Assembly (NCBI RefSeq): GCF_041248615.1
Contig: NZ_CP158426.1
Direction: 5' to 3' (one strand)
From: Escherichia coli
Lineage (GTDB): Bacteria; Pseudomonadota; Gammaproteobacteria; Enterobacterales; Enterobacteriaceae
DNA: 64,000 nucleotides
Below are positions 1,886 through 5,961 of this stretch, one piece after another. Under the pieces are notes generated by a model. That model did no database searches. It was not told the DNA's origin and was given only the letters and a program-made list of their open reading frames with translations. Numbering within the stretch: position 1 is the first letter of the stretch; each line of letters starts with the position of its first letter. The position numbers were made by a program, and so were the translations under genes.

Positions 1886-2647
1886 TTACCGCCACATCGC
1901 GTGTTTATCGCGATAGCAATCGACCCACATCGCCGTCGCACCACAAACGGCAACGGGCATGATGAACAGATTAAGCAGCGGGATCATCGTAAACAGGCTG
2001 GTTAAAGCACCAAACTGCATATTGGTGATTTTGCGTGTGCGCAGGGCGGTGCGCATCTCTTTAAACGGCACTTTGTGGTTATCGAAGGGGTAATCGCAAT
2101 ACTGGATGGCTAACATCCAGGCGCTAAACAGGAACCACAGTACCGGCGCGACGGTTTGCCCAATACCAGGGATGAAGTAAAGAATTAGTAATACAATTGC
2201 GCGCGGCAGATACCAGGCAAATTTTTGCCATTCGCGTTTCATGATTCGCGGCACATCTTTCATGATACCGAAAATCCCGGTATCTGGCGGTGTAGCGCCA
2301 GTCAATCGTGCTTCCAGTTGTTCAGCCAATAAACCATTGAACGGAGCGGCAATCCAGTTAGCAATCGTTGAGAAGAAATAGCCAAACACTAACAGCACAG
2401 AGATGACAGCCAGAGGCCACAACAGATAGCTCAGCCATTGTAACCAGTCCGGAACATAACTCATGAGAGTCGGGATCCAGACATCGAGTTGCGTAAAGAG
2501 CCACCAGAATGCGCCCCCCATCAACAAAATATTGACCAGCAGCGGTAAAATAACGAAACGCCGAATCCCAGGTTGCGAGACGAGCTTCCAGCCTTGCGCA
2601 AAATAGTAAAAACCGCTGCGTGGGGCAGATGTGAATGATGAAACCAT
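1886..2647 (-). CDS. cysZ: Sulfate transporter CysZ
   Basis: 253-aa polytopic membrane ORF, recognised as CysZ; conserved position between cysK and zipA. Confidence 0.9.
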
Positions 2648-2876
2648 AATCAGGATGAGCTCCTTTTGACCAATCCCAGGAAAATTCTGCGTATTTTACC
2701 GGGTAATTGCGCAATGGACAGTTAGGATATGTTCGAAAAAACAGCAAAAAGCACGATTTCATCTATCTTTGTGCTGTGAAAGTTAATAGTGCACTTGCAC
2801 TTGAGGTAATCGGCAAATACTCTTAGTGAGTAAATGTTTGCCGTGGTGGCAAGGTGTTAGAACAACAGAGAATATA

Positions 2877-3875
2877 ATGATGCAGGATTTGCGTCTGATA
2901 TTAATCATTGTTGGCGCGATCGCCATAATCGCTTTACTGGTACATGGTTTCTGGACCAGCCGTAAAGAACGATCTTCTATGTTCCGCGATCGGCCATTAA
3001 AACGAATGAAGTCAAAACGTGACGACGATTCTTATGACGAGGATGTCGAAGATGATGAGGGCGTTGGTGAGGTTCGTGTTCACCGCGTGAATCATGCCCC
3101 GGCTAACGCCCAGGAGCATGAGGCTGCTCGTCCGTCGCCGCAACACCAGTACCAACCGCCTTATGCGTCTGCGCAGCCGCGTCAACCGGTCCAGCAGCCG
3201 CCTGAAGCGCAGGTACCGCCGCAACATGCTCCGCGTCCAGCGCAGCCGGTGCAGCAACCCGTGCAGCAGCCTGCCTATCAGCCGCAGCCTGAACAGCCGT
3301 TGCAGCAGCCAGTTTCGCCACAAGTCGCGTCAGCGCCGCAGCCAGTGCATTCAGCACCGCAACCGGCACAACAGGCTTTCCAGCCTGCAGAACCCGTAGC
3401 GGCACCACAGCCTGAGCCTGTAGCGGAACCGGCTCCAGTTATGGATAAACCGAAGCGCAAAGAAGCGGTGATTATCATGAACGTCGCGGCGCATCACGGT
3501 AGCGAGCTAAACGGTGAACTGCTTCTTAACAGCATTCAACAAGCGGGCTTCATTTTTGGCGATATGAATATTTACCATCGTCATCTTAGCCCGGATGGCA
3601 GCGGCCCGGCGTTATTCAGCCTGGCGAATATGGTGAAACCGGGAACCTTTGATCCTGAAATGAAGGATTTCACTACTCCGGGTGTCACTATCTTTATGCA
3701 GGTACCGTCTTACGGTGACGAGCTGCAGAACTTCAAGCTGATGCTGCAATCTGCGCAGCATATTGCCGATGAAGTGGGCGGTGTAGTGCTTGACGATCAG
3801 CGCCGTATGATGACTCCGCAGAAATTGCGCGAGTACCAGGACATCATCCGCGAAGTCAAAGACGCCAACGCCTGA
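2877..3875 (+). CDS. zipA: Cell division protein ZipA
   Basis: Start placed at [21 protein letters not shown] (track ORF starts upstream at GTG 2826); N-terminal TM helix, P/Q-rich linker, C-terminal FtsZ-binding domain. Confidence 0.9.
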
Positions 3876-3904
3876 TACACTTAAGGCAAATTAACTCCTC
3901 TTCG

Positions 3905-3928
3905 AACCCCCGCTTGTCGGGGGTTTTT
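3905..3928 (+). terminator. Intrinsic terminator after zipA
   Basis: cccccg...cggggg stem followed by TTTTT. Confidence 0.55.
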
Positions 3929-3936
3929 AGCATTGA

Positions 3937-5961
<2,025 letters not shown>

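Follow-up and report, generated by a model that had tools for sequence, protein, structure and literature searches.

The ZipA of Escherichia coli K-12, the closest described counterpart of the protein studied here, has a total of 328 aa, with a transmembrane helix (aa 7 to 28), a charged region (aa 29 to 85), a PQ domain (aa 86 to 185), and an FtsZ-binding domain (aa 186 to 328) (PMC6904479). The same paper treats the PQ domain as a flexible, intrinsically unstructured tether but argues that it may have a more compact form than a freely moving one; for the role of flexible spacer it cites Ohashi et al. 2002 (PMC6904479). The locus analyzed here lies in a window of 64,000 nucleotides of E. coli DNA (the whole stretch under analysis) and carries a longer linker than K-12. 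It resembles slipped-strand indels in disordered low-complexity linkers, being an in-frame, one-unit indel between short direct repeats in a region that tolerates changes of length. Unlike phase-variable contingency loci, the zipA indel is never frame-shifting and its alleles are stable across large clades. Classification as a phase-variable simple-sequence contingency locus was considered and rejected, given that the site has just two imperfect units of 12 nt, that the indel is in frame, and that the alleles are fixed across thousands of genomes.

We hold with high confidence that this is an ordinary zipA with two PVQQ units where K-12 has one, the difference being a repeat-mediated indel of 12 nt that represents an old, shared, and near-neutral polymorphism, with the two-unit form likely the older of the two.

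The zipA gene and its product

The features of the locus are collected in Table 1. Translation starts at ATG ATG CAG GAT (MMQDL) at position 2877 and yields a protein of 332 aa. The same 999-bp gene is annotated by RefSeq in NZ_LT599825.1 (E. coli NRZ14408), where positions 1570877 to 1571875 correspond to 2877 to 3875 of the window and the product is WP_001317975.1. The window as a whole matches 1568001 to 1632000 of this chromosome, with 100% identity over its first 25 kb. The mechanical list of open reading frames (ORFs) proposed a GTG start at 2826 (a 349-aa ORF), which we discarded as an artifact, the annotated ATG at 2877 being conserved in K-12; positions 2826 to 2876 are the upstream stretch that this list adds to the gene. 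On either side lie cysZ (1886 to 2647, minus strand) and ligA (3946 to 5961), and the order cysZ-zipA-ligA-ypeB-yfeH is common to the window and K-12. The cysZ and ligA neighbors were also found in NZ_CM149869.1 and NZ_CP063476.1, the two records with shorter linkers described below.

Table 1. Features of the zipA locus in the window
Feature	Position	Strand	Evidence or remark
zipA CDS	2877..3875	+	332 aa plus stop, 999 bp; Pfam ZipA_C, PDB 9iue, RefSeq annotation
ZipA membrane anchor and charged region, N-terminal, aa 1-85	2877..3131	+	protein identical to K-12; limits per PMC6904479
ZipA P/Q-rich linker, aa 86-189 (K-12 numbering 86-185)	3132..3443	+	composition; PMC6904479
PVQQ unit 1 (CCG GTG CAG CAA)	3246..3257	+	sequence
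PVQQ unit 2 (CCC GTG CAG CAG), 10/12 identical to unit 1	3258..3269	+	sequence
Indel zone	3249..3268	+	bounded by exact direct repeat GTGCAGCA
ZipA C-terminal FtsZ-binding globular domain, aa 190-332	3444..3872	+	protein identical to K-12; Pfam, 1F46/1F47/1F7W
Antisense ORF, 103 aa	3012..3323	-	stop-poor linker composition
Antisense ORF, 101 aa	3103..3408	-	stop-poor linker composition
Antisense ORF, 66 aa	3278..3478	-	stop-poor linker composition
Sense off-frame ORF, 101 aa	3094..3399	+	stop-poor linker composition

The product has the complete architecture of ZipA. The anchor and the charged region that follows it (aa 1 to 85) have the K-12 sequence, the linker is rich in P and Q (30% P, 25% Q, and 16% A over aa 86 to 188), and Pfam PF04354 (ZipA_C) matched aa 198 to 321 with an E value of 3.2e-46 (156.8 bits; cut-off, 23). 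The full-length ZipA structure PDB 9iue was matched with an E value of 4e-213, and residues 189 to 332 matched the C-terminal domain chains 1F46, 1F47, and 1F7W. As the binding domain is 100% identical to that of K-12, the protein would be expected to bind the C-terminal peptide of FtsZ and to be needed for division.

No sigma-70-like site was found upstream of zipA by a promoter and terminator consensus scan. Between zipA and ligA, a G+C-rich hairpin at 3904 to 3928 (GAACCCCCG/CGGGGGUUU, -15.5 kcal/mol, z = -3.0) precedes a run of T residues and has the appearance of an intrinsic terminator; this hairpin was missed by the consensus scan and confirmed by folding.

Four long off-frame ORFs cover the linker (Table 1). 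None of them had a Pfam match, and there is no RefSeq annotation at their positions in K-12 or in NZ_LT599825.1. They arise because the P/Q/A linker is built of GC-rich, stop-poor CCN, CAR, and GCN codons. The GC content of the stretch from 3090 to 3440 is 65.5%, versus 49.7% for the rest of zipA, and the five noncoding frames of 3104 to 3396 contain about 10 stops in about 490 codons (2%), versus about 6% elsewhere in the gene. With an off-frame stop density of approximately one third of that in the rest of zipA, these figures agree with the first-pass annotation, which had attributed the antisense ORFs to the low-complexity linker. None of these off-frame ORFs warrants annotation as a gene.

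The linker indel and its flanking repeats

The zipA gene of K-12 MG1655 (b2412, NP_416907.1) has 987 bp and encodes 328 aa, the length stated for it in the first-pass annotation and also that given in PMC6904479. Pairwise alignment of both proteins, the check which that annotation had proposed, gave one gap of 4 aa at the PVQQ reiteration and two substitutions, R120H and S152P (R120 and S152 in the window, H and P in K-12). The linkers are therefore not identical, and all differences between the proteins are confined to this P/Q-rich region; the anchor, the charged region, and the FtsZ-binding domain are the same, in what is plainly the same gene. The two genes differ by one in-frame indel of 12 nt, by the two amino acid substitutions, and by five silent changes. 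A 17-aa peptide with a reiterated PVQQ had been singled out beforehand and was located at aa 121 to 137 (nt 3237 to 3287), and the proposed length of 332 aa from MMQDL was borne out by the ORF count from 2877 and by RefSeq.

At the level of codons, the window has CAG CCG GTG CAG CAA CCC GTG CAG CAG CCT at this site, whereas K-12 has CAG CCG GTG CAG CAG CCT (QPVQQP). An exact direct repeat of 8 nt, GTGCAGCA, flanks the indel, with copies at 3249 to 3256 and 3261 to 3268. Because GTGCAGCA is present twice, exactly, there are nine equivalent deletion registers, and the K-12 sequence is regained by deleting any 12-nt block from 3249-3260 through 3257-3268. During replication, the two copies would allow the strands to slip and mispair, or a deletion to arise between short direct repeats. 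The repeat slippage suggested for this site in the first-pass annotation is a mechanism that fits both the exact 8-nt repeat and the variation in unit number across Escherichia described below.

The repeat by itself is unremarkable. Shuffling of the linker gave an exact tandem 4-mer peptide in 8.4% of cases, and codon shuffling gave a tandem 12-mer at 10/12 identity in 29%; as a tandem PVQQ is not improbable for a linker of this composition, we claim no statistical significance for it. Tandem Repeats Finder reported no repeat in 2800 to 3900, the units being too short and imperfect for this program, so that the repeat is defined by comparison. Motifs of the QP[VL]QQP type start at aa 103, 123, 127, and 140 of the protein. 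It is the position of the indel, which coincides precisely with the repeat when the alleles are compared, that establishes the feature as real.

Rare, larger linker deletions were found in two of the unusual records, which were examined individually. Strain HCP5S3_I4 has a ZipA of 308 aa with an in-frame linker deletion of 24 aa (NZ_CM149869.1, locus 295-1221), the junction of which is also present in ECCHD184 and EH2252, i.e., in at least three genomes in all; this count rests on three single-piece junction-probe matches at 100%, the coverage of split matches being uninformative. EM10-18-28 has a ZipA of 295 aa with an in-frame deletion of 37 aa (NZ_CP063476.1, locus 301-1188). Each of these deletions fuses two motifs of the QPV|QQP type and shows, at larger scale, the repeat-mediated pattern of the 12-nt indel.

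Linker alleles in E. coli and its relatives

To follow the indel among complete E. coli genomes, we used a 110-nt probe across the site, which matched zipA in 5,423 of 5,426 genomes. The two-unit allele accounted for 2,379 records (2,011 + 368) at ≥95% probe identity, ca. 44% of the complete genomes, and the one-unit, K-12-like allele for 3,042 records at 80 to 90% probe identity, which reflects the 12-nt gap. A few dozen records with other values of probe identity differ in other ways. Two-unit alleles other than that of the window showed 0 to 5% divergence in the 110-nt probe region. Among the matches listed, the two-unit allele was carried by O157:H7, UTI89, NU14, and O25b:H4-ST131, and the one-unit allele by K-12, E. 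coli C, ST167, O111:H8, O111:H11, and O22:H8; we take these two sets of strains to represent phylogroups B2/E and A/B1, respectively. The 332-aa form is thus a common, widespread allele that is not peculiar to the strain of the window. It is already known under its own RefSeq accession, WP_001317975.1, a protein of non-K-12 lineages (O157:H7, UTI89, and ST131-type) that is the window protein itself.

Two of the zipA matches fell on plasmid-labeled records, and a single genome out of 5,426 gave no zipA match; these are probably assembly or labeling oddities, zipA being reported as essential in E. coli. Over positions 1 to 25000 of the window, the only near-identical records (100.0%) in the E. 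coli genome collection were NZ_LT599825.1 and NZ_OW967178.1, the next best listed having 98.7% identity. With only two such records over 25 kb, the lineage of the window is sparse among complete genomes.

Outside E. coli, we searched species-representative Enterobacteriaceae genomes with a degenerate DNA pattern for the two-unit linker peptide of the window and found 54 loci, 49 of which provided a whole ZipA. The outgroup sample comprises the species returned by this pattern, among which E. fergusonii and E. marmotae do not appear. Together with three E. coli alleles (52 sequences), total ZipA length ranged from 295 to 350 aa, with a linker of 67 to 120 aa between an N-terminal part of 85 to 89 aa and a C-terminal part of 143 to 144 aa. 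Mean identity to the window ZipA was ca. 50% in the linker, 85% in the N-terminal part, and 90% in the C-terminal part.

The proteins of E. albertii and of divergent Escherichia lineages resemble that of E. coli in having a variable number of units at the same site between conserved flanking domains. E. albertii (ligA identity to the window, 89.7%) has two 18-nt units of the QPVQQP type, SCPM-O-B-8794 (91.1%) has two units, Escherichia sp. E1V33 (90.9%) three, and Escherichia sp. MOD1-EC7003 (93.7%) one. They differ from E. coli in that the unit is of 18 nt (QPVQQP), in contrast to the 12-nt PVQQ step between E. coli alleles, and in having further indels downstream in the linker. Since this 18-nt unit is found in one to three copies at the site homologous to 3243-3272, indels have recurred at this position across the genus, which makes it a hotspot.

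History and consequence of the length difference

That the additional 12 nt could be an artifact of sequencing or assembly in a low-complexity region has nothing in its favor apart from repeats being hard to assemble in general, and we give it practically no credence: ca. 2,000 complete genomes, independent of one another, have the identical allele at ≥99% identity over the site, it is annotated by RefSeq, and the frequency of the two-unit allele among complete genomes refutes it. The order of the units bears on the history of the indel. SCPM-O-B-8794 and E1V33 have CAG CAA at the end of the first unit and CAG CAG at the end of the last, the same asymmetry as in the window. K-12 retains the CAG CAG CCT version alone, which corresponds to unit 2 of the window, and MOD1-EC7003 retains the CAA version alone. 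Because the pattern of CAA first and CAG last is shared and two silent sites distinguish the units of the window, the most parsimonious history is probably a multi-unit ancestor that underwent independent losses of units, one of which would have given rise to the K-12-type allele.

The opposite polarity, in which a K-12-like, one-unit ancestor acquired a 12-nt tandem duplication in a non-K-12 lineage and the window allele is the derived one, seems unlikely to us. A one-unit ancestor with later duplication in E. coli is conceivable because MOD1-EC7003, the nearest outgroup genome by ligA, has a single unit, and slippage is able to add units, E1V33 having three. However, freshly duplicated units would be identical, while those of the window show two synonymous differences (CCG/CCC and CAA/CAG), in an order that recurs in more distantly related Escherichia with two or three units, and the correspondence of the K-12 unit to unit 2 is what would be expected of a deletion from a window-like allele. 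As the K-12 allele probably derives by deletion, the window allele would not be an expansion. We therefore favor a multi-unit ancestor: an in-frame loss of 12 nt from a two-unit allele would have produced the K-12-type (phylogroup A/B1-like) allele, and the two forms constitute an old allelic polymorphism, common to thousands of E. coli genomes. The difference from K-12 reported in the first-pass annotation is thus real, and what changes is its reading, from an event in the window genome to an old, shared allele from which K-12 itself probably departed by deletion.

As for its consequence, the linker would connect the membrane anchor to the FtsZ-binding domain as a flexible spacer, and a change of ca. 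4% in its length would be neutral or nearly so; given such a role, near-neutrality is expected for four residues in ca. 100. We consider it very improbable that the length difference is adaptive, with tether length tuned by lineage to alter the reach of ZipA or its organization of FtsZ filaments. The alleles do appear to segregate by major lineage, judged by strain names, and the amino acid differences between both proteins all fall within the linker, but shared ancestry alone would produce the association with lineage. Moreover, conservation within ZipA is lowest in the linker, the length of which differs by over 50 aa between close relatives, and viable isolates bear the 24- and 37-aa deletions. 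Schoenemann, Vega and Margolin (J Bacteriol 2020) reportedly found the ZipA linker dispensable for division. Slightly less probable still is the proposal that selection acts on the one- and two-unit alleles as well as on the rarer deletions of 24 and 37 aa, which would tune tether reach or crowding, subtly changing the organization of the Z-ring between lineages.

Neutrality, which we prefer, would fit the high frequency of both alleles, the larger natural deletions in isolates, and the wide variation in linker length between species. With the description of the linker as a flexible tether (PMC6904479), these observations (both alleles common, deletions of 24 and 37 aa in isolates, and linkers of 67 to 120 aa) lend indirect support to the first-pass view that the difference is unlikely to be functionally important. 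The biological weight of four residues is thus very small. K-12 is not a universal reference for the length of ZipA, and past position 124 residue numbers shift by four between the K-12-based literature and strains with the 332-aa protein. The indel site in the linker could also act as a simple lineage marker.
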